Assembly (NCBI GenBank): GCA_937888635.1
Contig: CALARG010000004.1
Location: forward strand, 7,193 to 71,192
Length of the DNA stretch: 64,000 nt
Direction: 5' to 3'
Origin: an uncultured Alphaproteobacteria bacterium
GTDB taxonomy: Bacteria; Pseudomonadota; Alphaproteobacteria; Rs-D84
Made by a program: the position numbers and the translations under genes. Within the stretch, counting starts at the first letter, position 1. The number at the start of each line of letters is the position of its first letter. Under the pieces are notes generated by a model. The model saw only the letters and a list, made by a program, of their open reading frames with translations. It had not been told where the DNA came from and did not search any database. This document shows, one piece after another, positions 4,538 to 50,029 of this stretch.

Positions 4538-5656
4538 ATGATTAAAGATTACTATTCAGAAAATTGGTATCAGGCAACAGATAAATTTATTAAAAATGCC
4601 CAAGGGCGTGGTGTGTTGCGGTGGTGTGTTATGCCGGGACATGAATATGATATTCCATATTTAACAATTGGTAATGGTGAAAATCGTGTGGTGATTAATT
4701 CTGGTGTTCATGGGATAGAAGGCTATTTTGGCAGCGCTGCGCAAAATATGTTTCTGGACAAGATGGTGGACAGTTTGCCAACGAAATTATTGGATAAGTA
4801 TACAATTGTTTTGGTGCATGTTGTCAATGGGTGGGGAATGCAAAATCGTATGCGTGAAGTTATGGACAAGACGCATGGCGGTTTGGTTGACTTAAATAGA
4901 AATTTTGGGGTTGATTTTGATAATAAATCTGCCCTGCCCCAAAATCCAAAGTATGATTTGGCGCATGATTTGCTGCTGTCACGACCAGATAAAGTTCAAA
5001 AGAAAAATGCAATCAAGGAATTTCGCCAAAAACATTTGCATGATGGTGTATGGAGTGCCATCAGTTATGGACAGTATAAGCATCCGTATGGGTTGTTCTA
5101 TGGTGGTGTGGCGCCTATGACAGAAAATAAGATGACATTAAGTATATACGATAATATTATGTGTGGTGCAAAATCATTGATATCTGTTGGGTTGCATACT
5201 GGTCTGGGGCGGTTTGACAAACGGCGTGCGTATGTGTCGTCGCATTTGTTGGTGTCGCATCCAAAAGCACACAAAAATACGCAATATTTTTCAGACATAT
5301 TGCATGGTACGGAAATCGTTTCTGATGAATTGGCGATAAATGGTCCAACCCTGTTGGGCGACTTAGTTGATTGTTTAGAGGCGCGATATGCAACAGCACA
5401 ATTGCCTGTATATACAGCCGACTTTGAAATTGGCACAGGCGAGTTTCCAATTATGTCGCCAATTTATAAAAGAATGGACATGGGTGATGCGCGTTATGAT
5501 TTGATAAATTATGGCAAAATTAATCCACAGACCTGGGCTAATTTAACAGAAAGTTGGTATCCATCAGATGTTAGATGGCGTGTGGGCGCATTGGAACGCG
5601 CACATATTTTGTTTAAAGAAATGTTTGATGAATTGACAAAAAAAGTACAGCGTTAA
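4538..5656 (+). CDS. M14-family zinc carboxypeptidase-like protein (DUF2817/succinylglutamate desuccinylase-like fold)
   Basis: An HxxE zinc motif in GVHGIEGY and the carboxypeptidase signature GLVDLNRNF are present. It occupies the position where tolB-pal would be expected. Confidence 0.55.
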   Translation: MIKDYYSENWYQATDKFIKNAQGRGVLRWCVMPGHEYDIPYLTIGNGENRVVINSGVHGIEGYFGSAAQNMFLDKMVDSLPTKLLDKYTIVLVHVVNGWGMQNRMREVMDKTHGGLVDLNRNFGVDFDNKSALPQNPKYDLAHDLLLSRPDKVQKKNAIKEFRQKHLHDGVWSAISYGQYKHPYGLFYGGVAPMTENKMTLSIYDNIMCGAKSLISVGLHTGLGRFDKRRAYVSSHLLVSHPKAHKNTQYFSDILHGTEIVSDELAINGPTLLGDLVDCLEARYATAQLPVYTADFEIGTGEFPIMSPIYKRMDMGDARYDLINYGKINPQTWANLTESWYPSDVRWRVGALERAHILFKEMFDELTKKVQR

Positions 5657-5793
5657 GTTGTGTCTGTGGTTGTCCAAGAAATGGTTTGTCATATCTGTAT
5701 ATACAGGCGTAAAATTTAGGTTTTTTTGTTATTTTTCACTTGCCCAAAAGGCTGTTTTTTTTCTAGGATTTATATTAATGAGAGGGTAAGTAC

Positions 5794-27545: not shown

Positions 27546-27660
27546 ATCGGCGAAAAAATACTGTCAAAAAAATTATTGCTGTGTTGGGGGAATTTTTTAC
27601 TTGTGCAAAATTGCTGGTTTTTCTATGATAAAGACAAAAGAGAAAAAGAAAGTGGGAAGA

Positions 27661-30600
27661 ATGTCTAGATTTCTGCGGTTTTACGCATTTTTATCTGTTT
27701 TGTTTTTTACCGGTAATTTGATGGCGGCGGGGTATACCTGCAGCACAACGGCGAGATATACTTCGTGTAAAGAAGGCTATTATATGTCCGATTGTGGCAG
27801 TACAGCCGCGAATTGGACTGGGCAGACAGTGGACGCAACCAATGGTAACACTTGTATTGCGTGCCCTGACGGATATGCGTGTGAAGGTGACAATGTGTGT
27901 CCTGTGCGGAATGGTATTAACTGTGCCGCGGGGACATATATCAAGGCGAATACAACAACATGTACCGCATGTCCGGCTGGGAATTATTGCCCAGGCATAA
28001 CCACAGATTCTGTGACCAGTACTTCATCAGATCGTGGTATAACACAATGTCCGGCGGGTTCCTATTGTCCCGCGGGCAGTAGCAATCCAAAGTCATGTCC
28101 AACAAATTATGGAAACAGTGCAGCCGGTTCAGATGCGGCATCAGATTGCTATGCCACTTGTGGGGTTGGTGCAGTGGTGACTGCGCCAATGACACCGTGC
28201 GTTACACCAGCGGGGGCATGGTATTCCCCATCGGCACATAATGTTTACTATGGCAAAATTTCACCAATTGGGTATTGTCAGTATGGGTCAGATTCCCGCA
28301 ATGGGGTAACCAGTTTGCATGATCAGGGGGCCGACTGTTTGGTGACAGTGCCGGCGGGGTACAGTTCCGCGGTCACAACCAGCACTGCACGTTATATCCG
28401 AATCAGTTCTGAAACAGGCGTATTCCCGTTGGCAGAGGTTCAGGCATATAATAATTCTTTGGGCCAGCTGAGTTTGGCATTGGGCAGCAGTGTGACAAAT
28501 GGTGTGAATGCATTGGATGGTTCTTTGGCGACACAGGCGGGCGTAACCACAGAATCGGCTGTTGGGGCGTATGCGATATTTGATTTGGGCAGTGCCAAGA
28601 CGATTACGAATATTAAGTTTGCATTGGGTAATGTGACCAGTGGATATAATATTGTAATTGCAATATCGTCTGATAAATCAAACTGGACAACTGTATTTAA
28701 TCAGACCGTTTTTGGTGTTTCGGTATTGCCGGGCGTGTTGCAAAATGTACCGCTTAACACCCGGACAAATACCAAGTGTACAGCCGGCACATATCATGGT
28801 TCAACGACGGTTGCTGCAACAAATGGTGTGACCTGTTCGGAGTGTCCGGCAGCGGTATGTAATGGAGAAACAAATTGTGCCAGTGGTTTTTCAACCCACA
28901 GAAATACATATCCTGCTAATTACCATTCTGATGATAATTTGAAATTGGTTAAGGCATGGTTCGCAACATCGTCAAATACAGGAAATACATCCATAGAGGA
29001 ATGTAAGCTGTCTTATACGTATACCAACAATCGTGGTACATTTAATCAGGATTCAGTTCGGTATCAATCCAGTACGGGACGCTATGATGGTGTGGGTGGT
29101 TCTGTTTACTATACTGTTTTGAATCCTGGTTATTATGGTTCTGGCAAAATGCCAGATGGGTACTGTGATACTGATACAAATACTCGTCGGCATTATTATC
29201 AGGATGCAGTATTATGTCCTGCGGGGAAATACTGTTCAGGATATACACAGATGCCATTGTGTTCTTCTGGAACTTATAATGATACAATGGGAATTGATGG
29301 TTTGTTATCTGGGGGATACTTTTCAACTGGTGGTGCGACAAAAGCTGCACCGACATCGGCAGATTGCGTTGGGGTTGTTGGAGCCGATATCTGGAGTTCA
29401 TCTGTTTCCCCGGTAAAAAATGTCTGTGGTCAACTCTTGCCTGGATATTATTCCATAGAGGGTGCTATCTTGCCTGCGCCGGGTGAATTGGGTGCAAAAA
29501 ATACCGCGGCATTGGGCTTTAGTATTGATTATTTGAATCAGGGGCTGGATTCTGTTCGGGCGGGATGCCTTGGAAGTGACAAATGCGGTATGGTTGCTGC
29601 GGGGTATTTTTCATCGGGCGCTGCAACTTATCCAAGGCCATCGTCTACAGGTTGTGTGAGTGGGACATGTGGCATTTGTCCGGCAGGTGCATATTCTGCC
29701 GCAGGCGCGACCAGTTGTACAGCATGCCCTGCCCTGGGTGGATCAAATTGGACCTGGAATATGTCACAGGGTGCCGGATCATTGTCTGCCTGTAAGCGTA
29801 AGGGTGTGCCCGATGGGTGCAGCGCCGGTACGGTGACGGATACTGCAACATCGGCAACAACATGGGGAAATCGTGTGCTGAACGAATGGGCGGCGCCTGG
29901 GAATACGCAAATCTTTGCACAACGGGGATATCAGATAGATGTGACCAATCTAAAATGTACAATATGCCCAAATGGACATTATAGTGGGGGATATACGAGC
30001 AGTTGCGCCCCAGTTAATGCTGGATATTATGCAACAGGCGCTGCAACTTCACCAGCCCCTTCGTCATCAGAAGATTGTGTGACTGGAACATGTGGCAAAG
30101 TTCAAAAGAATTGTTATGGCGCATCAGGGGCGACATCAGCATGCCCAAACAAATGTTCTGATTTGGCATATGGTACATACCCACAGTCGGATGAGGGCGC
30201 GGATTCACCGAATAAATGTTTCACATCGGGCAGCGCGATGGGCGGTGGATATATTGCAACAGCCGGTGGCCCACGCCGTGATTGTCCGTTGGGAACATAT
30301 AAGGAATATCATACTGTGTATTATGGTCAAACATCTCGGTGTACAGTCTGTCCAAGTGGGACCACCACAGCGACACAAGGCGCTCATAATACATCCAGCG
30401 CGTCATGCAGTGCTGAATGTACAAATGCTGATGGTGTGTATGAATGGCAAATGCCAGAATTGTCTTCGGATGGAGGAACAGTGTTAAAATTGTGTCAGGC
30501 GGCCAGTTGCAAGGCAGGAAACGCTTTGGGAACAACAAGCCAATGTAACGAATGTCCGGCGGGACATTATCAACCCGTTGATGGTTATTCCGACAGCATA

Positions 30601-33600
30601 TGTAGCATAACACCCGATGGATATTACAACAACGAGCCCGGCGCAACAGAGCCACTGCCGTGTCCCGCAGGGCAATGGTCGGTGGCGCAATCTAAATCAT
30701 GTACGACCTTGCCTGCTGGATACTGGAATAATGGTTGTGGTACTGATAACAAGGGTTCTGTACGTGAAGGTTATCTGGGTGGCGAGATTGCTGCGGGTTA
30801 TTGGGGCGAAGCTGGTGCGACAACTGCAACGGGTTCTGGTATGGTTAATGCAGGTTACTGGAACGATGGTTGTGGTATAAATGCAACAGGTGGCGTTTGC
30901 GACACAACCCATAAGGGTGGCCAGGTAAATGCCGGATACTATAACCTGGGTGGTGGTACATCGCCAACACCAGAGGTTCGCGGAAAAGGTTGCGCAAATG
31001 TCAGCACCACGCAATGTGGTACGGTTGCACCAGGCTATTGGGGGGCTGCGGGTGCAACACAATATGGGGGCTCTGGGGCCGTTGCGCCGGGATATTTTTC
31101 AACAGGTGGTGCAACATCCAGAACACCAAGTGCAAGTGATTGCGCCGGCAAGGTTGCGATTATAGAAAATGGCAAGCTGATGGGTGCATCTGATGTTAAT
31201 AACACATGTGGACAGGTTCAGGCCGGATACTGGAACAATGCATGTGGTATTAATGCAACTGGTGGTGTGTGCAGCACTAGTTACCAAGGTGGTATAATCG
31301 CAGCTGGATATTGGGGAACGGTGGGCGCAACGGACAGTGTTGGCTCAGGGCGCATTGCCCCAGGATATTATTCAACCGGTGGTGCAACAATTGAGTATCC
31401 AGATCCAAATCAGTGCGTTGGTAATAATACATGTGGTGCAATTGCGGCAGGATATTGGAATAATGGTGGTGGTACACTGGCCGCGCCAACGGCCCCAGGC
31501 AATGGGTGCCACAGTGATAAATCGTGTGGCACGGTTAACGGCGGATACTATTCAACTGGTGGTGGTACATCCGCAACGCCAACAGCCGCAAGTAATGGAT
31601 GTTTGGCTAATAAGTCTTGTGGTAAATTAAGTGCGATATACTATTCAAATGGTGGCAGCACATCTGATGGTGCGACATGTGTTAGTGGTAAAACATGCGG
31701 TACATGTAATGCAAATTATCGTGCAAATACCACAACAGGTAAGACATCCGCAAGCCAGTGTCAGGCATCTTGTGCGGCAGGCACGCGTGTTGCAACAGTG
31801 AATGCAGCATGTACATCGCCGGCGGGCGGATGGTTTAGTGCGGCCCATCTGGTAAATTATGGTCAGATATCACCGGTAAATTACTGTATGTCTGGTTATA
31901 CATCAGCCAGCACATCGGCCAGTGGTCACGATGCAAAATCTGATTGTGTCCAGACGGTTGCAGGTGGTAAATATGTGCCGTCGTCAAAGATTAATGCACG
32001 GTATATTAAGATTACATCTGATGGCAGTGTTAGTGTAAGCGGTTCTACAAATCCAAGTACACACTTGCTAGAAATGCAGGCGTTTGCATCCAGTGATGGT
32101 ACAGGCACAAATCTGCTGTCAGGTAAAGGAGCGGTTGCAGGTGATAAGATGTCTGCGGTGACAAATGGCAACTGGACACGTGGCGATGGGTATTCCTATG
32201 GCGAAGGGTCACCAATGATATTGGATTTAGGTTCTGTTCAGGCGTTGGGCAGTTTGAAGTTTGCGATGTATACTGATGGTCGTGAATATCAGAATGTTGC
32301 AATTGCGGTGTCTGAAGATAACACGACATATACAACAGTGTTTACAGCGAATAAACTGTTAACCCAGAATACAACCACCCCAACAGGCGAACTGGTTGTA
32401 TTAAGTGCAGCACCAAAATCATGTGCGGCCGGTACATCTAAGGCATCAGGTACGGTTGCGTTGGGCAACACAACGACATGCGGTACATGTGCAAACTGGA
32501 CATATTCTGGTGCGGGTGCGGCATCATGTACCGCCTGTCCAGCGGTAGAGTCTGGTTATGCAAAACTGGACAGCACAGGTACAGGATGGACGACATATCA
32601 GAAGTGTGTTGAAATTGCGACTGCATCGCCAGCAAACTGTAAGTCTGGTAAATTGCAGAAGATTCCAACTGCATCTGGTGCAACGACATGGGCAACAGCA
32701 ACAGTTAATGCGAATAATCCGTTGAATGCAAATCCGGGATATATCGTAAGTGGCACAATGTGCTCACAATGTACTGGTGCGACCTACTCTGCTGGTGGCA
32801 GTGCAACATCGTGTTCGGCCTGTGATCCAAATTATCAGGCGGATACCACTGCAGGTAAATCGGCTGCAACTCAGTGCCAGATTTCATGTGCGCCTGGTAC
32901 AGCAGTTGTAGAAAAGAACAAGGCATGTGCAGTGCTGTCAGGTGGTAAGTATAAGACGGGCACGGCATTGGTAAAATATGGTTCGTTATCGCCAACCGCA
33001 ACTGATAAAACATCAGGATGGGCGGTGGATACAGTGTATAGTTGCCCAAGCAGCTATGGCATTAGTGGCACAGCGGCGGCCAATCATGATGCACGCACGG
33101 ATTGCACTATTAGCTGTCCGGCGGGAACCCAGGTTGCAAGTACGAACGCAACATGCACAACACCAAGTGGCACAACATGGTACACATCTGGACACAGTGT
33201 TGCGGCGGGCTCAACATCTGGAACAAATGTAAAAAGCTGTAATTCTGGTTATACGACGCCGAATACAACAACACAATCTGATCACGACGCGGCAGCGGAT
33301 TGTAAGATTAGTTGTGATGCTGGATACTATGTTCCAAATGCAGGTCAAGGATGTAAGATTTGTGCGCCGGGTAAGTATTGTGAGGCTGTGTCAGATATTG
33401 ATCAGACAAAGATATCGGCTGTGACCGGCGATGTGACGGCGGGATACTATTCCAGTGCGGGCGGTACATCGGCAACGGGTACATGTTTGTCTGGCAATTC
33501 TTGTGGCAGTTGTTCAACCGGAACAGGTTCTAATGGGCGTCTGTTGTATTCAAATGCTGGGGCGGCATCATGTTCGGAATGTCCAGCGGCAACAGGCACA

Positions 33601-36600
33601 TTGGCCAGCCGTGTGACGGGGTATAGTGGATGGTGGTCAAATAATATCCATAACAAAATTGGTGGGTGCTATGCGAATTTCTCTGACAGTGATGATACTG
33701 CAACATACCGAACAATGTGTTATTACAACGCAACAGATGGCACATATGGTGGCGAAAACAGCAGTTGTCAGTTCTATGCCCCAACGGCATGCAGTGGCGG
33801 ATACTATTCAGTTATTGATAAAACATCTGAATGGAGCACGTATGGATATGCGTACTGTAAGGGTGTGGATTGCATGAAGGGTAAGGTTTGTGGTCTGACC
33901 GATGCTGGTTCATACAGTCCAGATGGCGCAACAACACAGACCAAGTGTGTAATGGGTTCGTATACCGACACAACAGGTCAAAGCGCATGTAAGGCATGTG
34001 CAGGTGGCAAGACAAACAGCGCAGATGGTGCAACATCGTGTACAGCAACCTGCTCTAATGCGACGGGTGTGACAGGTTGGGAAACACCGGTTTGGGACAA
34101 CACAACCAACAAGATGACCAATTTGTGCACGGTTAAGGCAACAGCGGGCTGTTCGGCAAATTATTACAAGAACAGCAATGCGTGCACTGCATGCCCAAGT
34201 GCGACCTATCCATATAGTGTGGCAGGCGCAACAGCACAAACACAGTGCTATGCAAATGTGACATTGAACAAGAATGGATTTAGTGGTTCTATTGCGGCTG
34301 GTTTGGGCACAGGGTGCAAGGTTGTATCTGCTGCGACAGGTACAAATAATGCGACACTGCAGGTGTATTACAATACAGAATGTACATTGCCAACAATCAG
34401 CGGATTTACCCAGACGGGTTATACTGCGGCCAGCGGTTGGGCATCTGTGAATACGATTGGTGCAAGTGCAGTGACCAAGTTGCCGGCATCAACATCAAAA
34501 CCTGCGGCGACATATTATGCGCGCAAGACAACATGTGGTGCAGATTACTATAAGAAAGATGCAACGACATGCAGCACATGTGCAAGTGGTACGGATGGCA
34601 ACTATACCAAGTCTGCAGCAGGCACGGCCAGTGATGTGAATGTATGTTATCTGAATACAACGGCCAAGAACTTTGTTAAGACACCGGGCGCAGGTCAAAC
34701 AACATGTGAGAAAGGCAACTATTGCCCAGGTTCGGTCAAGGTGTATTATGGCGGAACAGCATCTGATACACACCCAACAACCGGTGGCAGTACACAATGT
34801 CCGGCAAACAGCTATTGCGTGGCGGGTGTAAGCGAACCAGTTGCGTGTTCAACACTGGGTGGTGGTTTGTATAAGAACAGTACAGCAGGTGCAAGCGCGG
34901 CAGAAGATTGCAACTTTACAACAACGGCGGGTAAGTACATGGTTGCGAATACCGATACTGCACAGACAACATGCCCAGCCAAACAGTACTGCACAGCAGA
35001 AACGCTGAACTGGCCAAATGTCAGTGTGCTGAACGACGGCGGTTGGAATGACTGTCCAGATGCAGCAACGCATAAACGTACATCGTTCCCTGCGGATTAC
35101 TATAGCCCGACGTTTGCAAGCACCAGTGTGACAAGTTCTACAGGTAAAGGATCTATAAGTGGGTGCCAGGTATTAAACTGGTTGGATTCAGCAACGCATG
35201 GTGGATTATACGAATATGTGAACTATAATCCAAACTCTGGCAAGTATGATACAACATACACATACAGATGGCATAGTGCAAAGCCTGGTTATTATCTGAC
35301 TGATAAAAATGGTTGTGGAGGATATGCATATTATCAGACCATCAAAGAATGCGAGCCAGGTTCGTACTGTCCGGGTAAAAACAAGGTTTCATGTAATAAA
35401 GATAACCAGGCAACGGTTCATACGGATACATTTGGTATATATTCGTGTTCGGCGGATACAGATGGCAACTATGAACTGTCATCTGGTGGGGTGGCGGCGA
35501 ACAGCATTAACAAATGCTATCTTGTGACCGATGTTGGTGATTGGGTGGCCACAGCGAACGCAGCCCAGACAGATTGTCAGGCAGATGGTTGGTGTCCTGG
35601 TAATGCGACCGTGTACTATGGCAGTACCGGTGGACGCACAGCATGTGTGGCACCATATGGATTGGCCGCAGCGGGGTCAGATGATGCGAATGATTGCTAT
35701 CTGAAGACCACGGCGGGACAGTATGTTGAGACCGCGGGCGCAGGTCAGACAGTATGCCCGGCAGGATACTGGTGCGTTGGTAAAGTCACCATATATAAGG
35801 GCGGTTCGGTCACCGGTCGCAGCACAAAGGGTGGCAGTGAACAATGCCCCGCCGGTTATCGTGATGGCACAACAGGATACAGTTTACAGTCACAGTGCAC
35901 AATGAATGTTCTGGGCGGTAAGTATGTTAAAGTTGTCAACGAAAGCAGTGCCAGTGGTACATGCGATTTAGGAACATATAAACCTGCACACCCGGTCACA
36001 TATGGCAAGACATCCAGCTGTATTCCTTGTCCGAATGCAACATATGCAGCACAGGAAGGCATGAGCGCATGTGAAGCATGTCCGACGGCAACAAAGTATG
36101 CGGATAAGGTTGTGTCGTATGGATCAAACAAAAAAGCGCGTTCAGGGTGTTATGCCAGATTTGAAGATACAGTAAAAAACGGCGAAACAACGTATTTTAG
36201 TTGTTATCTGCGGTCTGGTGATGATTATGGAACACTGACCAGTGGTAATAATTGTTGGACGCATGGGGCGCGCACAAAGTGTGACGCAGGGTATTATTCA
36301 CCGGTTGTACCAAACGCCCAATATGATGAAATGTGGTACATGAATTATTCAACAGTTGTTAATAATTTGTGTATGCCAGTAGAATCTGGATACTGGTCGG
36401 GGGCGGACAGCCTGACCCGTACGGCGTGCGAAACAGGCCTGGTGACATGTGGTGCGGGGTTGTGCGCGAACGAGGCCGGCGACTGTGGACGCAAGTTGCA
36501 TGCAGGTGATAATGTAATCTATCTGCGCAGCCAAAAGCGTACGACACCATCGCTGAATGTGAAAATTGGTGATAAGATGTTCTATGGAAACCTGGGGGAT

Positions 36601-36669
36601 GTTATTGCGAACAGTCTGCGGGTTAAGAATGGAACAAAGAATTACTCGGTTGTTAATGATAACCAATAG
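27661..36669 (+). CDS. Giant secreted Cys-rich repeat protein, paralog of 5794..12921 (about 3000 aa): ephrin-receptor-like Cys repeats, two discoidin-like (F5/8 type C) domains, Gly/Tyr/Trp-rich repeats, Cys-rich modules
   Basis: The likely start is ATG 27661 (AAGTGGGAAGA ATG; signal peptide MSRFLRFYAFLSVLFFTGNLMAAG); the ORF track starts at 27601. There are CxxCPAGxYCPG repeats. Discoidin-like segments are ARYIRISSETGVFPLAEVQAYNN... (about nt 28380-28740) and ARYIKITSDG...LLEMQAFAS... (about nt 31985-32350). A block of about 230 aa is near-identical to gene 1. The same 3' flank and terminator motif as gene 1 are present. Confidence 0.8.
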   Translation: MSRFLRFYAFLSVLFFTGNLMAAGYTCSTTARYTSCKEGYYMSDCGSTAANWTGQTVDATNGNTCIACPDGYACEGDNVCPVRNGINCAAGTYIKANTTTCTACPAGNYCPGITTDSVTSTSSDRGITQCPAGSYCPAGSSNPKSCPTNYGNSAAGSDAASDCYATCGVGAVVTAPMTPCVTPAGAWYSPSAHNVYYGKISPIGYCQYGSDSRNGVTSLHDQGADCLVTVPAGYSSAVTTSTARYIRISSETGVFPLAEVQAYNNSLGQLSLALGSSVTNGVNALDGSLATQAGVTTESAVGAYAIFDLGSAKTITNIKFALGNVTSGYNIVIAISSDKSNWTTVFNQTVFGVSVLPGVLQNVPLNTRTNTKCTAGTYHGSTTVAATNGVTCSECPAAVCNGETNCASGFSTHRNTYPANYHSDDNLKLVKAWFATSSNTGNTSIEECKLSYTYTNNRGTFNQDSVRYQSSTGRYDGVGGSVYYTVLNPGYYGSGKMPDGYCDTDTNTRRHYYQDAVLCPAGKYCSGYTQMPLCSSGTYNDTMGIDGLLSGGYFSTGGATKAAPTSADCVGVVGADIWSSSVSPVKNVCGQLLPGYYSIEGAILPAPGELGAKNTAALGFSIDYLNQGLDSVRAGCLGSDKCGMVAAGYFSSGAATYPRPSSTGCVSGTCGICPAGAYSAAGATSCTACPALGGSNWTWNMSQGAGSLSACKRKGVPDGCSAGTVTDTATSATTWGNRVLNEWAAPGNTQIFAQRGYQIDVTNLKCTICPNGHYSGGYTSSCAPVNAGYYATGAATSPAPSSSEDCVTGTCGKVQKNCYGASGATSACPNKCSDLAYGTYPQSDEGADSPNKCFTSGSAMGGGYIATAGGPRRDCPLGTYKEYHTVYYGQTSRCTVCPSGTTTATQGAHNTSSASCSAECTNADGVYEWQMPELSSDGGTVLKLCQAASCKAGNALGTTSQCNECPAGHYQPVDGYSDSICSITPDGYYNNEPGATEPLPCPAGQWSVAQSKSCTTLPAGYWNNGCGTDNKGSVREGYLGGEIAAGYWGEAGATTATGSGMVNAGYWNDGCGINATGGVCDTTHKGGQVNAGYYNLGGGTSPTPEVRGKGCANVSTTQCGTVAPGYWGAAGATQYGGSGAVAPGYFSTGGATSRTPSASDCAGKVAIIENGKLMGASDVNNTCGQVQAGYWNNACGINATGGVCSTSYQGGIIAAGYWGTVGATDSVGSGRIAPGYYSTGGATIEYPDPNQCVGNNTCGAIAAGYWNNGGGTLAAPTAPGNGCHSDKSCGTVNGGYYSTGGGTSATPTAASNGCLANKSCGKLSAIYYSNGGSTSDGATCVSGKTCGTCNANYRANTTTGKTSASQCQASCAAGTRVATVNAACTSPAGGWFSAAHLVNYGQISPVNYCMSGYTSASTSASGHDAKSDCVQTVAGGKYVPSSKINARYIKITSDGSVSVSGSTNPSTHLLEMQAFASSDGTGTNLLSGKGAVAGDKMSAVTNGNWTRGDGYSYGEGSPMILDLGSVQALGSLKFAMYTDGREYQNVAIAVSEDNTTYTTVFTANKLLTQNTTTPTGELVVLSAAPKSCAAGTSKASGTVALGNTTTCGTCANWTYSGAGAASCTACPAVESGYAKLDSTGTGWTTYQKCVEIATASPANCKSGKLQKIPTASGATTWATATVNANNPLNANPGYIVSGTMCSQCTGATYSAGGSATSCSACDPNYQADTTAGKSAATQCQISCAPGTAVVEKNKACAVLSGGKYKTGTALVKYGSLSPTATDKTSGWAVDTVYSCPSSYGISGTAAANHDARTDCTISCPAGTQVASTNATCTTPSGTTWYTSGHSVAAGSTSGTNVKSCNSGYTTPNTTTQSDHDAAADCKISCDAGYYVPNAGQGCKICAPGKYCEAVSDIDQTKISAVTGDVTAGYYSSAGGTSATGTCLSGNSCGSCSTGTGSNGRLLYSNAGAASCSECPAATGTLASRVTGYSGWWSNNIHNKIGGCYANFSDSDDTATYRTMCYYNATDGTYGGENSSCQFYAPTACSGGYYSVIDKTSEWSTYGYAYCKGVDCMKGKVCGLTDAGSYSPDGATTQTKCVMGSYTDTTGQSACKACAGGKTNSADGATSCTATCSNATGVTGWETPVWDNTTNKMTNLCTVKATAGCSANYYKNSNACTACPSATYPYSVAGATAQTQCYANVTLNKNGFSGSIAAGLGTGCKVVSAATGTNNATLQVYYNTECTLPTISGFTQTGYTAASGWASVNTIGASAVTKLPASTSKPAATYYARKTTCGADYYKKDATTCSTCASGTDGNYTKSAAGTASDVNVCYLNTTAKNFVKTPGAGQTTCEKGNYCPGSVKVYYGGTASDTHPTTGGSTQCPANSYCVAGVSEPVACSTLGGGLYKNSTAGASAAEDCNFTTTAGKYMVANTDTAQTTCPAKQYCTAETLNWPNVSVLNDGGWNDCPDAATHKRTSFPADYYSPTFASTSVTSSTGKGSISGCQVLNWLDSATHGGLYEYVNYNPNSGKYDTTYTYRWHSAKPGYYLTDKNGCGGYAYYQTIKECEPGSYCPGKNKVSCNKDNQATVHTDTFGIYSCSADTDGNYELSSGGVAANSINKCYLVTDVGDWVATANAAQTDCQADGWCPGNATVYYGSTGGRTACVAPYGLAAAGSDDANDCYLKTTAGQYVETAGAGQTVCPAGYWCVGKVTIYKGGSVTGRSTKGGSEQCPAGYRDGTTGYSLQSQCTMNVLGGKYVKVVNESSASGTCDLGTYKPAHPVTYGKTSSCIPCPNATYAAQEGMSACEACPTATKYADKVVSYGSNKKARSGCYARFEDTVKNGETTYFSCYLRSGDDYGTLTSGNNCWTHGARTKCDAGYYSPVVPNAQYDEMWYMNYSTVVNNLCMPVESGYWSGADSLTRTACETGLVTCGAGLCANEAGDCGRKLHAGDNVIYLRSQKRTTPSLNVKIGDKMFYGNLGDVIANSLRVKNGTKNYSVVNDNQ

Positions 36670-36693: not shown

Positions 36694-36718
36694 TCCCGCC
36701 CATGTGGCGGGGTTTTTA
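36694..36718 (+). terminator. Rho-independent terminator after giant gene 2
   Basis: cccgcccatgtggcggg hairpin plus a T-run, preceded by the aatcaaggaaggaaaaa motif shared with the gene 1 3' flank. Confidence 0.75.
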
Positions 36719-37060
36719 GTGGTTAGTGTTGGTCCCTGCGGGGCAATGGATACCCACCTGTGTGGGTATGACGGACTTATTTTTACTGTGATAAATAAAA
36801 GTTTATATTAGTGGTTAGTGTAAGTTGTAAGTGGTTAGTGGTGGAAATAAATTAAGAATCTTCGTCATTCCCGCGAATGCGGGAATCCACTGCGTCGCAG
36901 ACATTTTCTTACTTGTCCCTGCGGGGCAATGGATACCCACCTGCGTGGGTATGACGGAGGGTGCGCGTTGCGCACGGTTTGGGGACCCTGTTCCCGCCTT
37001 CGCGGGAATGACAAAGGGGGGGCGTGGTTTGTGCCCTGCCCGTGTTTAGGGATAAATTTA
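36716..37060. repeat. Intergenic palindromic repeat locus (modules A, B x2, C x2, D)
   Basis: Module B occurs twice: tccctgcggggcaatggatacccacctgtgtgggtatgacgga at 36729-36771 and tccctgcggggcaatggatacccacctgcgtgggtatgacgga at 36907-36949. Its stem is atacccac/gtgggtat, versus ataccggc/gccggtat at 25039-25058, which is a compensatory change. Module C hairpins are attcccgcgaatgcgggaat and ttcccgccttcgcgggaa. Module D is gataaataaaagtttat, and the GT-rich module A is also present. Confidence 0.8.
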
Positions 37061-39043: not shown

Positions 39044-39070
39044 ATAATCCCCCGTTTGGGGGATTTTTAT
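39044..39070. terminator. Bidirectional rho-independent terminator between dnaK (+) and the phosphoesterase gene (-)
   Basis: atcccccgtttgggggat hairpin flanked by A- and T-runs. Confidence 0.7.
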
Positions 39071-39594
39071 TAGCGTGAAAATTTGCGCGATTGGGTAATA
39101 AATGGATTAACCAATGGCACAGGTCGGTAATCCGTTTTTTCAACACATACATTTATGCAATGCGCGTGGTCTGGGAAATCATAATCTTGGATATGAATAT
39201 GACCATGAATATTCGCAATGTTTGGCAGGTTGCCAAATTCTGGCAATGGTTCGTGCGACAGCATGATATAATTTTCTGCATCATATATCGGATGTGAATA
39301 AACGCGATCAAACCCGGCCGACAGCCACCAGTGTTCTGAATGCCCGCGGTCGTGATTGCCCATAATCAGATATTTGCGGCCACGCATCTGTTGCAGAATC
39401 TTTTTTACTTTATCGGGGGTCGCACCATACATAATGTCGCCCAGCCAATAGCATATATCTTGTTTGGAAATGACAGAATTATAATTTTCTATCAATTTTG
39501 CGTTCATTTCGGCAATGTTTGCAAATGGACGATTGCCATTTCTGATGATAGATTCAGAATCAAAATGCGGATCCGAGAATACAAATTTTGCCAT
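39070..39594 (-). CDS. Calcineurin-like metallophosphoesterase (about 174 aa)
   Basis: Start set to the ATG at 39592-39594 (complement; MAKFVFSDPHF...); the ORF track extends upstream to 39669. Canonical MPE motifs are present: SDPHF (DxH), LGDIM (GD), MGNHD (GNHD) and HGHIH (GHxH). It lies 5 nt downstream of the stop of the NTase gene, so the two are translationally coupled. Confidence 0.75.
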   Translation of the reverse strand: MAKFVFSDPHFDSESIIRNGNRPFANIAEMNAKLIENYNSVISKQDICYWLGDIMYGATPDKVKKILQQMRGRKYLIMGNHDRGHSEHWWLSAGFDRVYSHPIYDAENYIMLSHEPLPEFGNLPNIANIHGHIHIQDYDFPDHAHCINVCVEKTDYRPVPLVNPFITQSRKFSR

Positions 39595-39599
39595 GTGTA

Positions 39600-40535
39600 T
39601 CACCTTTGATATGCGATTTGCTTTAGGTCTTGGGATAATTGTTCCAGACGCTGAACAATTAAATTCCACGATGTTTTTGGGGCAGTAAATGTTTGTTGCG
39701 CCATATTGTCATAGTCTGATTCCAGGGCGTATAAAACCGGATCCGACGGAATCAAAATAGCATCGCGTGGTGTTATATCTGTTCCCAATCGCTTGGTTGT
39801 ATATTTTTCCTGGTACTGTGCAACATCTGACAGCATGTGCGCGGTTTTGTCTAAATCAACGTATCCTGCCAGTCTGGCAACATCAAAATAGTGGCGCGAA
39901 TAAAATGCGTCTGTGTGTGGGCGTGCCGATATAGCGTTTGAATGCAAGGCAAAAACCTTGTCCCAGAAGGTTTGTTCATAGGCAACGGTTGGGATATGCC
40001 CAAATCGGGTGCCCCGTAATGCATACGGCATTACAGAATGAAAAGACAGCGCAGACGATGAGTATTTGCGCGGAATTATTTCAATGTGAATTTCTTCGGG
40101 CCTGTCACAAAATGCAGAATTATAGAATATATGAATTGTTGGTGATGACAGCCATTGTTCTTTGTTGCTTCTTATACAGTGTTCACGGTCTGTTTGTATT
40201 TGGAAATTATTGTCTGTGGCAATCAGGGCCGATATTCGGGGGGCAACAGTTTCAAAAATAAATGTTTTAAACCGTTTGCGAAATTTTTTTAACTGATTTC
40301 GCGATGGGGTGTCGGGAATATCGCAAAATACAGTGCATGCCAAATCCAGGTCCTGGCTGACGCGTGGGCTGAACGCATATGATTTTGTAATAGAGCCACC
40401 ACCTGCAAACACAAAATTTTCCGCGAAGAATTTATCTTGGAATAATTTGACCAAGATTGCACATTCCAGGAAATCTTTTTCCGCCATGGCAGGGTTTTTG
40501 GCGCCTGCAAAAATATCGTACCGTTTTTCTATCAT
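39600..40535 (-). CDS. Pol-beta-superfamily nucleotidyltransferase, AbiEii/DUF1814 (MenT-like) toxin family
   Basis: The N-terminal motif AEKDFLECAILVKLFQDK...FVFAGGGSITKSYAFSPRVSQDLDLA matches the AbiEii/DUF1814 signature (KD..ILk.l...FvFKGGTaL.k.y...RfSeDiDf; hG[GS]x9-13DhD). 311 aa. No AbiEi-type antitoxin ORF is adjacent. Confidence 0.65.
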   Translation of the reverse strand: MIEKRYDIFAGAKNPAMAEKDFLECAILVKLFQDKFFAENFVFAGGGSITKSYAFSPRVSQDLDLACTVFCDIPDTPSRNQLKKFRKRFKTFIFETVAPRISALIATDNNFQIQTDREHCIRSNKEQWLSSPTIHIFYNSAFCDRPEEIHIEIIPRKYSSSALSFHSVMPYALRGTRFGHIPTVAYEQTFWDKVFALHSNAISARPHTDAFYSRHYFDVARLAGYVDLDKTAHMLSDVAQYQEKYTTKRLGTDITPRDAILIPSDPVLYALESDYDNMAQQTFTAPKTSWNLIVQRLEQLSQDLKQIAYQR

Positions 40536-40634
40536 GCGCTGATTATAGCCAGTAAGTGCATTTTGTCAATAAAATGATAAAAAACTTGTGTTTATGGGTT
40601 TGACATAATGGTGTGCGATGGGTATTATGTAGGT

Positions 40635-45284: not shown

Positions 45285-45313
45285 AAAACAAGGCCCCATT
45301 ACGGGGCGTTTTT
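45285..45313. terminator. Bidirectional terminator between xseA (+) and recN (-)
   Basis: ggccccattacggggc hairpin with flanking A- and T-runs. Confidence 0.65.
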
Positions 45314-46964
45314 ATTGCTTTAACAATGTTTTTGCCATTGTTATAGATTCAGGCGTTATTTCAGCACCACTGATTATTCGTGCGATTTCATTTATGCGTT
45401 CGTCAGATTTTATTTCGCATACACTGGTTGTGGTTTTTTCATCGTGAACCGACTTTGATATTTTAAAGTGCCGGTCAGCAAAGCCTGCAACCTGGGCAGA
45501 ATGCGTTATAACCAATGCCTGGGATTGGTGCGCCAGACGATTAAGGCGCGCCCCGACCGCAGACGCAGTGGCACCACTGATACCGGTATCAATTTCATCA
45601 AAAACAAACGAACACATATCGTCTGTGCCGGTTAAAACAACACGCATTGCCAGCATTAAACGCGCCAATTCACCACCTGATGCCGCCCGATGCAGGGGCG
45701 CAAATGGCGAACCAGGATTTGTCTTTATCATAAATGTAATGTCGTCCGTACCGGTTGATGATGCATCAGTTGCGTTGATTTCAACCATAAAATCAGCAGA
45801 CCCCAGTTTTAAATCAGGCAATTCACGCAGTAATGCATCGCGCAATATATTGGCGCCATGGACGCGCGCATTATGCAATTGTGTGGCAGATGCATCAAAA
45901 TCAGCCCGCGCCACCTTTAACGCGGCAGATAATTTTTGTAATTGCGCATCCGAATTATCAATCGCATCAAGTTGTGCAGACATTTTTTCCAGTAATGCCG
46001 GCAGTTCGTCCGCAGGCGTGCGATGTTTGCGTGACGCAGCACGAATTGCGAACAGTCGTTCTTCTATTGCGTCCATGTCATCCATATCGGATACTTCGGC
46101 GGTTAATGAATCAGATATTTGCGCAACGGTTTCTGCAATCTGGTACAATTTATCAATTTGTTCTGAATACGGGTTTTCATCGCCTTTGATTCTTTGTAAT
46201 ATGTGTGCGACCGCAAACAGTTGCGAATCAATTGAATTGCCACGCGGCGATAGGGCCTGTTGAGCCTCGGTCAAAATGGCGGCGTTTTTTTCGGCATTCA
46301 TCATATTGGCGCGACGGGTTGCCAGTTCTTCTTCTTCGCCGGGTTGAACATTCAGATTACGCAATTCTGCGACATTGTGTTCTAAAAATTCGCGTTCAGA
46401 TTCACTGCGTGCCAGCATTTCTTGCAACTGGGCCAATTGTTTTTTTGTTGTGTTATATAGCGAATATTTTTCTTTAACTTGTTCCAACAACTGTTTGTAA
46501 TCAGGTATATTATTTTGCAAAAACAAATCCAGCGTCGGACGGTGCGTTGACTGATTTAACAATGTATGATTTGCAAATTGGCCATGTATTTCAACCAAAC
46601 TGTCGCCAACCGACTTTAATGTCTTTACAGACACCGGCACATCATTAATCCACGCCCTGCTTTTACCATCGGCTGACAATGTACGACGCAGAATCAGACC
46701 GTCTGAACAATCAATATCATTTTCTGCCAATATGTTTTTAACCGCGTTTGGCACCATATCAAATTCAGCCGTTGCAGACGCTGTGTCGCAACCGTGGCGT
46801 ACCAACCCCGCATCAGAACGCGCGCCCAACGCCAGCGACAGCGCATCCATCAAAATACTTTTGCCCGCACCCGTTTCCCCGGTCAGCACATTCAGTCCCG
46901 CACCGAATTCCAGATTCAGTTTTTCAATTAAAACAATATTTGAAATATTTAAACCAACTAACAT
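45312..46964 (-). CDS. recN: DNA repair protein RecN
   Basis: N-terminal Walker A LNVLTGETGAGKSIL, a coiled-coil middle section and C-terminal signature/Walker B motifs; 550 aa. Confidence 0.93.
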   Translation of the reverse strand: MLVGLNISNIVLIEKLNLEFGAGLNVLTGETGAGKSILMDALSLALGARSDAGLVRHGCDTASATAEFDMVPNAVKNILAENDIDCSDGLILRRTLSADGKSRAWINDVPVSVKTLKSVGDSLVEIHGQFANHTLLNQSTHRPTLDLFLQNNIPDYKQLLEQVKEKYSLYNTTKKQLAQLQEMLARSESEREFLEHNVAELRNLNVQPGEEEELATRRANMMNAEKNAAILTEAQQALSPRGNSIDSQLFAVAHILQRIKGDENPYSEQIDKLYQIAETVAQISDSLTAEVSDMDDMDAIEERLFAIRAASRKHRTPADELPALLEKMSAQLDAIDNSDAQLQKLSAALKVARADFDASATQLHNARVHGANILRDALLRELPDLKLGSADFMVEINATDASSTGTDDITFMIKTNPGSPFAPLHRAASGGELARLMLAMRVVLTGTDDMCSFVFDEIDTGISGATASAVGARLNRLAHQSQALVITHSAQVAGFADRHFKISKSVHDEKTTTSVCEIKSDERINEIARIISGAEITPESITMAKTLLKQ

Positions 46965-46986
46965 GCCTGGATTATAGCCATTTTAC

Positions 46987-47427
46987 TTATATTTTTTCCA
47001 GCGAAAAATCATGCGTCCATAAAATATAGCCTTTGATTGCATAATCCGGATAAACCGCATGCAACAAGGCGATATATTCGCGAACCTGGAAAATATATTT
47101 GTCGCGATTAATCGTTTTGTCTATGTCTGTTTTATAATCCAGCACAGACACCGTCTTGTCTGATGCGTTTACAACCAATCGGTCAATGCGACGACTGATA
47201 AAACGCCCTTTTATCGTGCCGGCAATTGGAACCTCGGTTTTGGCAGATACGCAAAAGAAAGGCAGCAATTCGGATTTTGCAGAAATACGCGCAACCACAT
47301 CTGGGTCGCCCGATGTTTTATCGGCTTCAATCATGACCCGTTGCAATCTTTTATGCATTTGGGTGCCGGCATCGGTTGCAAAACGCGTGCGTTCACACTG
47401 ATTTAAAATGTCATGCAATGTCTTCAT
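46987..47427 (-). CDS. PD-(D/E)XK (RecB-family) nuclease domain; C-terminal fragment of a split AddA-like helicase-nuclease
   Basis: The nuclease motif IDRLVV...VSVLDYKTD...Y is present. The start overlaps the upstream helicase ORF in a different frame (the ORFs overlap at 47411-47427). Confidence 0.6.
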   Translation of the reverse strand: MKTLHDILNQCERTRFATDAGTQMHKRLQRVMIEADKTSGDPDVVARISAKSELLPFFCVSAKTEVPIAGTIKGRFISRRIDRLVVNASDKTVSVLDYKTDIDKTINRDKYIFQVREYIALLHAVYPDYAIKGYILWTHDFSLEKI

Positions 47428-50029
47428 TTGTTATCCTGATAAATTCTGGGGCGTCAGAGCCTGCAAAAACACGCCATAATTGGGTGTGCCATGCGTTTTC
47501 TGGGGCGTTCTTGTGCGGCGTATAGCCATATATATACAATTCGTCACGCGCACGTGTCATTGCCACATACAGCAAACGATAATATTCTGCCATACGCACA
47601 TGCATTAAGTTGTCGCGTGCATCGGCAGATTCACCAACCTGGGCCCCACGCGGTGTCCACAACCATACAGGCATATCATTGCGCGATTCAATCGGCAATA
47701 TATTTTCAGACTTTGGCGTGCGCACGGTGTCAATCAAGAACACAACACGCGATTCCAGCCCCTTGCTGCCGTGTACGGTCACAATACGAACGCCGGCGGA
47801 CGCGTCCATGTCGCGCTTTATCTCGCTGGCACCGGTTATAAACCATTTTAAGAAATGATGCAAAGTTCCGGGCTGGGTTCGTTCGTACGACAAGCATATT
47901 GTCATAAATTCTTCCAGCGGATCAATTACCTGATCGCCCAGGGCCGAAATAAATTTATGACGCGTATCATTTGTGCTTAGCACATACGAAAAGAATGTAT
48001 AGGCGGACGCCGTTTCGGACAAATTCTTGATATCTGTTAGTTGTTTGTAAATATCGGGTCGTTCGTTTTCTAAGATTTCAAAAACAGTTATTGGGGTTGC
48101 GGCTTTATCTTCGCGTTTGCGCGCACTGTTTATGTCATTTTTTATTTTGCACAAATCAAAAATATCATGTTCGGTCAAATAGAAAAAAGGACTTTTTAAT
48201 ACACAACATAAACTAAAATCATCCGTCGGATTCAGGCACCAACGAACCAGATTTAACATGTCACGAATGGCCGGATAGTTTGGCAAAACGATGCGGTCAC
48301 TGCCCGCAACATCTATGCCGCGTTTTTTCAACTGATAAATCAGAGGCGCCGCCATCGGGTTGCGCTGTTGCACCAACACCATAATATCGCCGGCCGTGTA
48401 TTTGCCAGAATCAATTAACATCTTTATTCTGTCGGCAATTGTGGCCGCATATTGATCAATCGTTGTGTCGGCGTCTTGTTTTGCGGTCAACGCATGTAAT
48501 TCAACAGCGCCAGGCGCATCAATACGAAAGCATTTGTGCGGATTGTTTGCAAAATCAGATATCGCAATTACCGTATCATCTGCAAAGAAACGATCAACGG
48601 TATTTAATACCGGTAAAGCAGAGCGAAAACTCTGTGCCAGGGGCACTTCACGAATGGTACGCACATTGTTTTCAATTTGTTTAGATATAACTTCGCGACT
48701 GTACGCAAATGCCGCAGGATCTGCACCCTGAAAGCCGTAAATTGACTGTTTAGTATCACCAACAACAAACAGCGAATGCGGCATATCGCCCGTGTCACCT
48801 TCGGTAAAAAAGTCACCAGACAGCATTCGCAATATATCCCATTGTAATGGCGATGTGTCCTGGGCTTCGTCCACCAAAATATGCGACAGCGACACATCCA
48901 ATTGAGACAACACCCACCCCATTGTTTCACGATTAGAAAACAATTTACGGGTATAAAGTATCAAATCTTCAAAATCCAGCAGATTGCGCGCACGTTTTTC
49001 ATCCCTGTATCGCGTTGCAAACGCTGCGGACAAATCAAATAAAGCCATCGTGTCCGCAAACACCAAAGCGTTGGTATTATACAGATTTTGGTCGTATACA
49101 CGCTGTTGCTCGGCGGACAAATATTCTTTTTTTGAAACGACGGATTTTTTGTTGCCTTCGGCCGTTAAGTATGCAGATTTATATTCTTCAAAATCTATTG
49201 TTTTATCAATATACTGTTTTGTTAGATTAATAATTTCCGTTAAGTACTTTGCCGGCTTTTTTGATGTTTTTTGTTCATCAGATGCTAAATCTATGATTTT
49301 TTGCAACAAAACTGGGTCAGCCACAGTATTTTTTGCCGAATCTATATTTAAAAACTTTTTAGTTGTATCAATAAAGTATTCGCGATATTTAACAATGTTT
49401 TCAATTTGAAAAAAATGTTTATATTGCGCGCTTAATATCGCCAACAGGTCAGTCATATATGTTTCAGAAACACGACCGACAATATGCGCAAAGGCATCAT
49501 AAACACGACCGTCTGAAGTTGGGGAATTTATCAGTTTATCAAACGCATCTTGCAATAATATGCGTTGAGCACTGTCGGACACCAGTAACCATGATGGCGA
49601 TACGCCCGCCTCTATCGGGAAACGATGCAATATTTCTTCACAAAAACCGTGAAGAGTTTTTATTTTTAGCATTTCAGGCGCATCAATATATCGGAAAAAT
49701 ATTTCACGCGCATGCGCAATGTCTGAATCTGTTATCGGGCGCGACAATGCAACCCCGTCCAGCATTTCTGCCAATTCATCATCAGATGCCAGCGCCCATT
49801 TTCGCAATGCGACCAATATACGATTACGCATCTCGCCCGCCCCGGCATTGGTGTATGTCAGGCACAATATTCCCGTAGCCGCACAATCAGGACTGCGAAA
49901 TAAAATACGCAGTAAACGCTGGACCAGGACACTGGTTTTACCGGTACCTGCATTTGCCTGGACCCATACATTCTCGCGCGGGTTGGCCGCACAATCTTGT
50001 TCAGGGGAAAGAGTGTGTTTTTTTGTCAT
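47411..50029 (-). CDS. UvrD/Rep-family ATP-dependent helicase (AddA-like N-terminal and helicase core, 872 aa), apparently separated from its nuclease domain
   Basis: Walker A ANAGTGKTSVLVQR; helicase motifs DEAQDTSPLQW, VGDTKQSIYGFQGAD, VHGSKGLE and VAMTRA. No addB-like gene is adjacent. Confidence 0.75.
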   Translation of the reverse strand: MTKKHTLSPEQDCAANPRENVWVQANAGTGKTSVLVQRLLRILFRSPDCAATGILCLTYTNAGAGEMRNRILVALRKWALASDDELAEMLDGVALSRPITDSDIAHAREIFFRYIDAPEMLKIKTLHGFCEEILHRFPIEAGVSPSWLLVSDSAQRILLQDAFDKLINSPTSDGRVYDAFAHIVGRVSETYMTDLLAILSAQYKHFFQIENIVKYREYFIDTTKKFLNIDSAKNTVADPVLLQKIIDLASDEQKTSKKPAKYLTEIINLTKQYIDKTIDFEEYKSAYLTAEGNKKSVVSKKEYLSAEQQRVYDQNLYNTNALVFADTMALFDLSAAFATRYRDEKRARNLLDFEDLILYTRKLFSNRETMGWVLSQLDVSLSHILVDEAQDTSPLQWDILRMLSGDFFTEGDTGDMPHSLFVVGDTKQSIYGFQGADPAAFAYSREVISKQIENNVRTIREVPLAQSFRSALPVLNTVDRFFADDTVIAISDFANNPHKCFRIDAPGAVELHALTAKQDADTTIDQYAATIADRIKMLIDSGKYTAGDIMVLVQQRNPMAAPLIYQLKKRGIDVAGSDRIVLPNYPAIRDMLNLVRWCLNPTDDFSLCCVLKSPFFYLTEHDIFDLCKIKNDINSARKREDKAATPITVFEILENERPDIYKQLTDIKNLSETASAYTFFSYVLSTNDTRHKFISALGDQVIDPLEEFMTICLSYERTQPGTLHHFLKWFITGASEIKRDMDASAGVRIVTVHGSKGLESRVVFLIDTVRTPKSENILPIESRNDMPVWLWTPRGAQVGESADARDNLMHVRMAEYYRLLYVAMTRARDELYIYGYTPHKNAPENAWHTQLWRVFAGSDAPEFIRITNEDIA

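Follow-up and report, generated by a model that had tools for sequence, protein, structure and literature searches.

Nucleotidyltransferases of the DUF1814 family (AbiEii, MenT) constitute a large family of toxins that matter in phage defence and in the physiology of Mycobacterium tuberculosis. In the AbiE and MenAT toxin-antitoxin systems (type IV, now type VII) they are encoded in tightly spaced bicistronic operons, behind a winged helix-turn-helix partner. To our knowledge, the control of DUF1814 enzymes described so far always relies on a protein antitoxin, acting through binding of the toxin, induction of its self-phosphorylation, or both. Auto-phosphorylation brought about by the antitoxin inactivates the toxin at T39 of MenT1, S78 of MenT3, and T65 of S. 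agalactiae AbiEii (PMC11375011; bioRxiv 10.64898/2026.01.19.700257), the phospho-acceptor being located two residues before the first catalytic Asp, for example T39/D41 in MenT1 and S78/D80 in MenT3 (PMC11375011). Here, a 64,000-nucleotide stretch of contig CALARG010000004.1 (referred to as the window) was analyzed, which originates from a Candidatus Enterousia-type alphaproteobacterium of the order Rs-D84. It carries an operon encoding a 311-residue DUF1814-type nucleotidyltransferase (NT) followed by a 174-residue metallophosphoesterase (MPE) (Table 1). No association of AbiEii or DUF1814 with a (metallo)phosphoesterase was found described in the literature searched. As a tentative reading, the pair may descend from an AbiE/MenAT toxin-antitoxin system whose antitoxin was replaced by a hydrolase counteracting NT.

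The assignment of the 311-residue minus-strand protein to AbiEii/DUF1814, made in a first, sequence-only reading of this DNA, was borne out by profile searches and by the predicted fold. NT matched Pfam PF08843 (AbiEii) over residues 27-288 with E=7.5e-22 and 78.9 bits (cut-off 22.5), as well as twelve AbiEii models of PADLOC, the best being PDLC02289 (1e-36). The motif quoted in that reading, G[GS]-x13-DhD, is present as G45-G-G-S48, 13 residues, and D62-L-D64 (motif I), followed by I-E152-I (motif II), W-D-K193 (motif III), and Y-x-D218 (motif IV), and all four catalytic motifs are invariant in an alignment of 29 sequences with identities down to 41%. Their spacing parallels what we take to be the equivalent residues of MenT3, D80/D82, E146, K189, and D211 (residue numbers partly from PDB entry titles). 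With NT as query, either its single sequence or a profile, the PDB yielded chance matches only; kinship with MenT3 and JHP933 is visible at the level of the fold only. The AlphaFold2 model had a predicted local distance difference test score (pLDDT) of 89.5 and a predicted template modeling score of 0.88; the top 12 PDB matches returned by Foldseek were all JHP933 or MenT3/TglT (Rv1045), with probability 1.0 and template modeling (TM) scores of 0.45-0.61 (0.52-0.60 for the best ones). Judged from sequence and model, NT looks like an intact, active AbiEii/MenT-type nucleotidyltransferase. Residues 79-105 form a basic helix conserved in the clade and including KKFRKRFK.

The MPE open reading frame (ORF) had been listed as 39070-39669 with a GTG start. 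The real start is the ATG at 39594-39592, as derived from the AAGGTGA ahead of this ATG and from alignment with the starts of all homologues. The protein had been called a calcineurin-like metallophosphoesterase with canonical motifs, and this was confirmed by matches to Pfam PF00149 (1.4e-7, 32.5 bits, cut-off 21.5), to PHROG 547 'phosphoesterase' (1e-34), and to PDB 1xm7 (Aquifex, aq_1665; 3.5e-9). The motifs DxH, GD, GNH[DE], H, GH, and GHxH are all present, and the metal-site residues D8, H10, D53, N80, H81, H114, H132, and H134 are invariant among 27 homologues with identities down to 33%. Using the model (pLDDT 94.1), Foldseek again returned 1xm7 first (E=5e-10, TM 0.68), then LpxH and MJ0936, which are nucleotide pyrophosphatase/phosphodiesterase types, unlike PPP or PPM protein phosphatases; phage COG4186 proteins match the model at TM 0.69-0.80. 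MPE is a member of the aq_1665/COG4186/PHROG 547 family, with the same motifs and fold and 34-46% identity to its bacterial and phage members, whereas pairing with an AbiEii NT and a C-terminal NPF tail were found in the Rs-D84 clade only. This clade-conserved tail (NPF-x4-R-x-F-x-R) corresponds to residues 160-174 (window ~39070-39117) and is absent from more distant family members. Either the tail or the basic helix of NT could serve as an RNA-binding or partner-binding element. On the evidence of sequence and model, MPE likewise looks like an intact and active small metallophosphoesterase. The pairwise ratio of nonsynonymous to synonymous substitutions is 0.05-0.10 for NT and 0.04-0.11 for MPE, the same range as for the neighboring genes tsaD, xseA, and dnaK.

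Both genes are organized for joint expression. The promoter ends 6 nucleotides (nt) before the NT start codon, and the NT-MPE mRNA is probably leaderless; TTGACA and a -10 hexamer located 4-9 nt (mode 6) ahead of an in-frame ATG were found in 30/39 related loci. Upstream of NT lies a 72-bp divergent promoter region, followed by a DUF2155 gene on the opposite strand. This gene has a near-consensus promoter, TTGACA-17-TATTAT, at 40600-40628(+), which ends 6 nt before the probable start ATG 40635 (MKKIIL...), the listed ORF start at 40608 being probably too far upstream. Leaderless transcripts seem to be common in this organism and, given that the divergent DUF2155 gene is laid out alike, the leaderless start of NT carries no toxin-specific meaning. 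The tight linkage noted at the outset, with the phosphoesterase starting 5 nt past the NT stop, was recovered together with a Shine-Dalgarno sequence within the end of NT. In 39/39 loci, 2-24 nt separate NT from MPE and a G-rich Shine-Dalgarno sequence is present, NT having diverged to 31-60% identity among them. As for the terminator and repeats said to bracket the pair, the hairpin downstream of MPE was retrieved; the repeats (36.70-37.05 kb) lie beyond dnaK, and on the NT side only the 72-bp promoter region is present.

Relatives of NT were collected by scanning one genome per species, ~12 kb being read per related locus; all related sequences are metagenome-assembled genomes (MAGs) or metagenome contigs. 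Close relatives were obtained from 38 loci (31-88% identity), all of them from Candidatus Enterousia or gut Alphaproteobacteria MAGs, and MPE follows NT on the same strand in 38/38. Searching from MPE yielded three further clusters of clade-type MPE (six loci) with AbiEii upstream in all, as was also the case for three MPE-anchored metagenome loci from within the clade. Taken together, 49/49 loci with either gene have both, at one chromosomal site and 2-24 nt apart, and no locus with NT but without MPE, or with a clade-type MPE but without NT, was encountered. The pairing is strict and has a single origin. Of the conserved, recurrent association between nucleotidyltransferase and phosphoesterase that the sequence-only reading had proposed to look for in a neighborhood survey, the conservation was found, in 49/49 clade loci, and the recurrence was not, there being one evolutionary event in one bacterial order.

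Outside this clade, the nearest NT relatives (42 loci, 23-28% identity) originate from Acidobacteriota, Nitrospirota, Mesorhizobium, cyanobacteria, and others, and belong to AbiEi(DUF6088)-AbiEii pairs: a gene for a ~202-residue protein with DUF6088 and an AbiEi_4 winged helix lies directly upstream, mostly with a 4-nt overlap, in 42/42. Within the clade, a DUF6088/AbiEi-like ORF was found at 0/39 loci and nowhere in the whole 64-kb window, in agreement with the earlier statement that the AbiEi partner is missing. At the phospho-acceptor position, Ser is present in 41/41 outside AbiEi-linked relatives, versus Gly 63, Ser 29, Cys 6, Thr 1, and Ala 1 in the MPE-linked clade (n=100), that is, Ser/Thr in 30/100. 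Loss of AbiEi (42/42 versus 0/39), decay of the phospho-switch (Ser 41/41 versus 29/100), and presence of MPE consequently go together. One outside locus was considered as a second NT-MPE pairing and rejected. In a Terriglobia MAG (L050, contig_15410, 5309-7710), a canonical DUF6088/AbiEi-AbiEii pair has a convergent gene for a 191-residue aq_1665-like phosphoesterase (E=3.7e-22 with the hidden Markov model of the clade) 186 nt downstream. It is the sole case of a nearby MPE-family gene among the 42 outside loci and is treated as a probable coincidence, since its closest relative (L059) is without MPE.

NT of the window itself has kept Ser at this position (S60), a candidate phospho-acceptor, which would suit a role of MPE as a dedicated protein phosphatase that removes the inactivating phosphate from auto-phosphorylated NT and so acts as activator in a type VII phospho-switch. 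DUF1814 toxins are indeed switched off by auto-phosphorylation, and the Ser/Thr phosphatases PstP and SaSTP reverse this in vitro (bioRxiv 10.64898/2026.01.19.700257; PMC11541572). This role is nevertheless highly improbable. Gly, Cys, or Ala takes the place of the acceptor in 70/100 clade members, all of which have nonetheless kept MPE with its ligands. Moreover, no antitoxin to induce phosphorylation was found in the 64-kb window or the clade loci, and the fold of MPE is nearest to aq_1665, LpxH, and MJ0936 and not to PPP/PPM protein phosphatases.

Loci devoid of the pair were retrieved from a sample anchored on DUF2155, which was deliberately weighted towards contigs on which NT had not been seen before and so gives no measure of frequency. 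It comprised one lineage with both genes (L169) and six with neither (L170, L171, L172, L173, L174/175, and L176/177), in which DUF2155 abuts rplS or another gene. No NT or MPE remnants were detected in the pair-less loci using tblastn (E<=1) and hmmsearch --max. A 312-residue ORF at the NT position in L171 was examined as a diverged NT and proved unrelated (hhalign probability 0.04). In a neighbor-joining tree of tsaD+o101+o123, which has no support values, the pair-less lineages are located within one crown subclade, mixed with carriers, and all deeper branches carry the pair. This distribution fits ancestral presence of the pair and at least three losses. The NT-MPE pair is dispensable and was lost only as a unit. 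The sole defective copies combine a frameshifted NT with an intact MPE, caused by a 1-nt insertion in L036 and by a 2-nt duplication in L084 when compared with its 99%-identical sister L083; such a sequence of decay, with NT first, would be anticipated for a harmful NT.

All carriers have the pair at one and the same chromosomal site. The left flank, consisting of xseA, tsaD, an AmiA-like gene, small ORFs, and DUF2155 (divergent from NT), is common to 38/38 related loci. On the right, 28/38 have the rplS-trmD-rimM-rpsP operon in convergent orientation, which represents the ancestral arrangement. This flank was rearranged several times without NT and MPE ever being separated, and dnaK as right-hand neighbor, seen in the window and otherwise only in L001 and L003, results from a recent rearrangement. 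The description of the pair as lying among genes of unknown function next to dnaK holds as far as dnaK is concerned; the neighbors (dnaK, DUF2155, AmiA-like amidase, tsaD, xseA) are mostly identifiable housekeeping genes, and the wider 64-kb window contains dnaK, secA, dnaE, ruvB, tsaD, xseA, smpB, and similar genes. Integrase, transposase, other mobility genes, and neighboring defence genes were not found in the window, PADLOC matches besides AbiEii being generic helicase-type and similar only. Because of this constant site and this gene content, the locus is a vertically inherited chromosomal site and neither a mobile element nor a defence island.

These data also bear on whether the locus could be a conventional mobile anti-phage element, either of the AbiE abortive-infection type or part of a defence island. 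The strong matches to PADLOC AbiEii models and the patchy presence within the crown group would be in line with it and, as few defence systems are recognized in Enterousia, an unrecognized one is plausible (bioRxiv 10.1101/2024.04.04.588093). However, the site is identical in every carrier, the patchiness is explained by losses, mobility and defence genes are missing from a housekeeping window, no NT relatives occurred in the viral contigs scanned, and the defining AbiEi component is absent, which makes such an element quite improbable. A defence role in place is compatible with replacement of the antitoxin by a hydrolase.

According to the latter, tentatively favored reading, NT would still act like characterized members of its family and extend the 3' ends of RNA by nucleotides, most probably at tRNA acceptor ends, thereby blocking aminoacylation, and the co-translated MPE would have assumed the antitoxin role enzymatically, either by hydrolyzing the added nucleotides or by otherwise undoing or limiting the NT reaction. 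NT as writer and MPE as eraser would form a pair, production of the former always entailing that of the latter, the most economical chemistry being removal of the nucleotides that MenT/AbiEii-type enzymes put on tRNA 3' ends. The module would be retained since the cell profits from a regulated activity of NT, in the form of growth arrest under phage attack or stress, and the strong purifying selection on NT suggests that its activity is useful and not merely addictive. MPE is the candidate restraining agent because it is made with NT, is never missing where NT is present, is dispensable once NT is gone, and arose with the decay of the old control. Transferase and hydrolase genes are adjacent (spacer 2-24 nt in 39/39) and co-occur (both in 49/49 loci, neither in six lineages). 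An enzymatic antitoxin is a reasoned hypothesis, strengthened by comparative genomics and unproven. The other suggestion made from the DNA, a second-messenger signaling unit, received no specific support.

Compared with AbiE/MenAT, NT shares PF08843, the fold, and the four catalytic motifs, and the operon is likewise bicistronic and tightly spaced. It differs by the lack of an AbiEi/COG5340/COG4861/MenA1-type antitoxin at the locus, by a partner that is encoded downstream instead of upstream and is a hydrolase instead of a winged helix-turn-helix protein, by the disappearance of the phospho-acceptor Ser/Thr in ~70% of the clade, and by fixation at one chromosomal site with vertical inheritance across an order. 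By analogy, the logic proposed for NT-MPE resembles DarT/DarG or toxSAS and small alarmone hydrolases (SAH) more closely than AbiEi/MenA: a transferase modifies nucleic acid and an adjacent hydrolase removes the modification. The antitoxins of toxSAS are SAHs. In contrast to these systems, the enzyme families of NT-MPE differ on both sides, the toxin gene comes first, and reversal by MPE is inferred. For toxSAS, one account (PMC11559606) mentions that FaRel2 pyrophosphorylates the tRNA CCA end. Furthermore, RNase PH as well as PcnA, the CCA-adding enzyme, trim MenT3-extended tRNA, and PcnA gives resistance (PMC11541572), which exemplifies a DUF1814 product being undone by a hydrolytic or phosphorolytic cell enzyme as proposed for MPE. 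RNase PH and PcnA are housekeeping enzymes acting in trans, whereas MPE would be a dedicated enzyme of a different superfamily, encoded in the same operon.

Phosphoesterases and nucleotidyltransferases are also combined in RNA repair. Bacterial class II CCA-adding enzymes possess an HD phosphoesterase domain that heals ends, and the Pnkp/Hen1 repair systems make use of a metallophosphoesterase and a nucleotidyltransferase. Both resemble NT-MPE in that a phosphoesterase is joined to a nucleotidyltransferase (Pol-beta-type or related) working at RNA 3' ends, and both are unlike it in being repair enzymes without toxin ancestry, from other domain families and in fused architectures. Following these analogies, NT and MPE might cooperate in RNA 3'-end healing and tailing, MPE clearing a 2',3'-cyclic phosphate/3'-phosphate or trimming damaged ends and NT re-extending them, in a sequential, dispensable pathway of RNA/tRNA repair. 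Such cooperation would account for two intact enzymes under purifying selection as strong as on their housekeeping neighbors, for a co-loss that equally suits a two-step pathway, for a site flanked by tRNA/ribosome genes (tsaD on one side; trmD, rimM, rpsP, and rplS on the other), and for long vertical inheritance of the operon in Rs-D84 genomes, which are mostly <1 Mb (PMC12306168). On the other hand, the neighbors are merely core genes of a small genome, NT shares its active-site motifs with toxin-type relatives, for which an antitoxin is always required, and NT never occurs alone whereas a damaged NT with an intact MPE does. The tRNA genes in related loci (Gly-CCC, Arg-CCG) encode CCA, so that no de novo end synthesis is needed, yet this is not informative either way. 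Overall, end healing appears rather unlikely.

Several points weigh against an antitoxin replaced by a hydrolase. Toxin-antitoxin modules do not usually persist for long by vertical inheritance among the housekeeping genes of genomes <1 Mb. With a single origin, there is no independent recurrence of the pairing to back a functional link, and co-loss is weak evidence, since adjacent genes can be deleted together for trivial reasons, by chance. The frameshifts of NT in L036 and L084 were seen in metagenome assemblies and may be erroneous. As the absence of AbiEi covers 64 kb here and ~12 kb per related locus, an AbiEi encoded elsewhere could act in trans. Among 77 metagenome loci whose MPE is a more distant relative (34-46% identity), none had an AbiEii-like ORF, their 114 immediate neighbors being heterogeneous, and the viral contigs scanned held no NT relatives. 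A literature search for COG4186 found no function, and no aq_1665/COG4186 member has been characterized. Finally, covariation of NT and MPE rates was dropped as evidence: the partial Mantel correlation (distances corrected by tsaD+xseA; r=0.63, p=0.0002) falls to 0.44 without L038 and to 0.17, no better than control genes, without the five deepest loci.

Part of these points would equally be expected if NT, as a tamed or re-purposed AbiEii relic, and a generic phosphoesterase were unrelated operon neighbors held together by synteny in a small genome. In addition to the single origin and the fragile rate covariation, the whole left flank is equally syntenic, and elsewhere the MPE family has heterogeneous neighbors and consists of stand-alone genes, as seen in 958 matching phage records and two bacterial examples. 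We consider mere neighborhood unlikely, since the short spacer and its Shine-Dalgarno sequence were kept in 39/39 loci despite the divergence of NT, the genes stayed joined while the right flank was repeatedly rearranged, the gain of MPE coincides with the loss of AbiEi and of the phospho-acceptor, and no clade-type MPE survives without NT.

Table 1. Coordinates of the NT-MPE operon elements in the window
Feature	Position	Strand	Basis
NT, 311-residue DUF1814/AbiEii/MenT-type nucleotidyltransferase	39600..40535	-	start ATG 40535; PF08843, PADLOC, fold, motifs
MPE, 174-residue calcineurin-like metallophosphoesterase, aq_1665/COG4186/PHROG 547 family	39070..39594	-	PF00149, PHROG 547, 1xm7, ligands
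Sigma-70-type promoter of the NT-MPE operon	40542..40569	-	TTGACA, 16 nt, TATAAT; consensus match 12/12
Gene junction	39595..39606	-	Shine-Dalgarno AAGGTGA 39606-39600 overlapping NT stop TGA 39602-39600; 5-nt spacer 39599-39595, then MPE ATG
Intrinsic-terminator-like hairpin, bidirectional	39046..39065		AATCCCCCGTTTGGGGGATT; terminator scan, both strands; common to convergent dnaK and the NT-MPE operon

Other features of the window were recorded as well. The intergenic region between a 3022-residue ORF and dnaK (36700-37050) contains palindromic repeats, namely two 44-nt copies at 36732-36775 and 36915-36958 (98% identical, with an internal hairpin in each), a 26-nt inverted pair at 36860-36885 and 36991-37016, and a 21-nt unit present three times. 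The repeats look like elements of the repetitive extragenic palindrome or miniature inverted-repeat transposable element type and sit at the rearrangement that placed dnaK beside the pair in this sublineage. A search of 36.5-41.5 kb for Rfam families returned no known RNA, and no tRNA genes were found in the 64-kb window. In most related loci, a tRNA-Gly(CCC) gene is conserved near this region; beside it, just past rpsP, a small HNH endonuclease gene was found in several loci (L085:7123-7464, L086:7064-7465, L087:8102-8540).

Two giant ORFs are present on the plus strand, at 27601-36669 (3022 residues) and 5794-12921 (2375 residues). The former is repetitive and rich in Cys, Gly, Thr, and Ser, with a signal-peptide-like N-terminus, and a similar gene of 2396 codons abuts DUF2155 in the pair-less locus L173. 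For Rs-D84 genomes, surface proteins with a role in cell-cell interaction have been proposed (PMC12306168), and the giant ORFs may represent these. GC skew is +0.2 to +0.3 from position 1 to ~45 kb, and about zero or slightly negative beyond; gene orientation switches at ~45 kb as well (45312-50029 on the minus strand), which may mark the boundary of an inversion or else an origin or terminus of replication. NT-MPE is among the few minus-strand units of the positive-skew part.

Standard defence and toxin-antitoxin finders cannot call this locus, because its AbiEi component is missing. If the antitoxin has indeed been replaced by a hydrolase, an enzymatic, product-reversing mode of control would be added to the DUF1814 family, and a first functional lead would be obtained for a phosphoesterase family that is widespread, counts hundreds of phage homologues, and has had an orphan crystal structure for 20 years. 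Extending this to the family at large is speculative and very improbable: aq_1665/COG4186/PHROG-547 enzymes would be erasers of tRNA 3'-terminal nucleotides added by DUF1814 toxins, and the copies found in hundreds of large lytic phages would serve as counter-defence against AbiE-type abortive infection. Were that true, the Enterousia operon would be the key to the function of the whole aq_1665/COG4186/PHROG-547 family. For the bacteria themselves, a replaced antitoxin would mean that genomes <1 Mb can retain a module derived from a toxin-antitoxin system through vertical descent.

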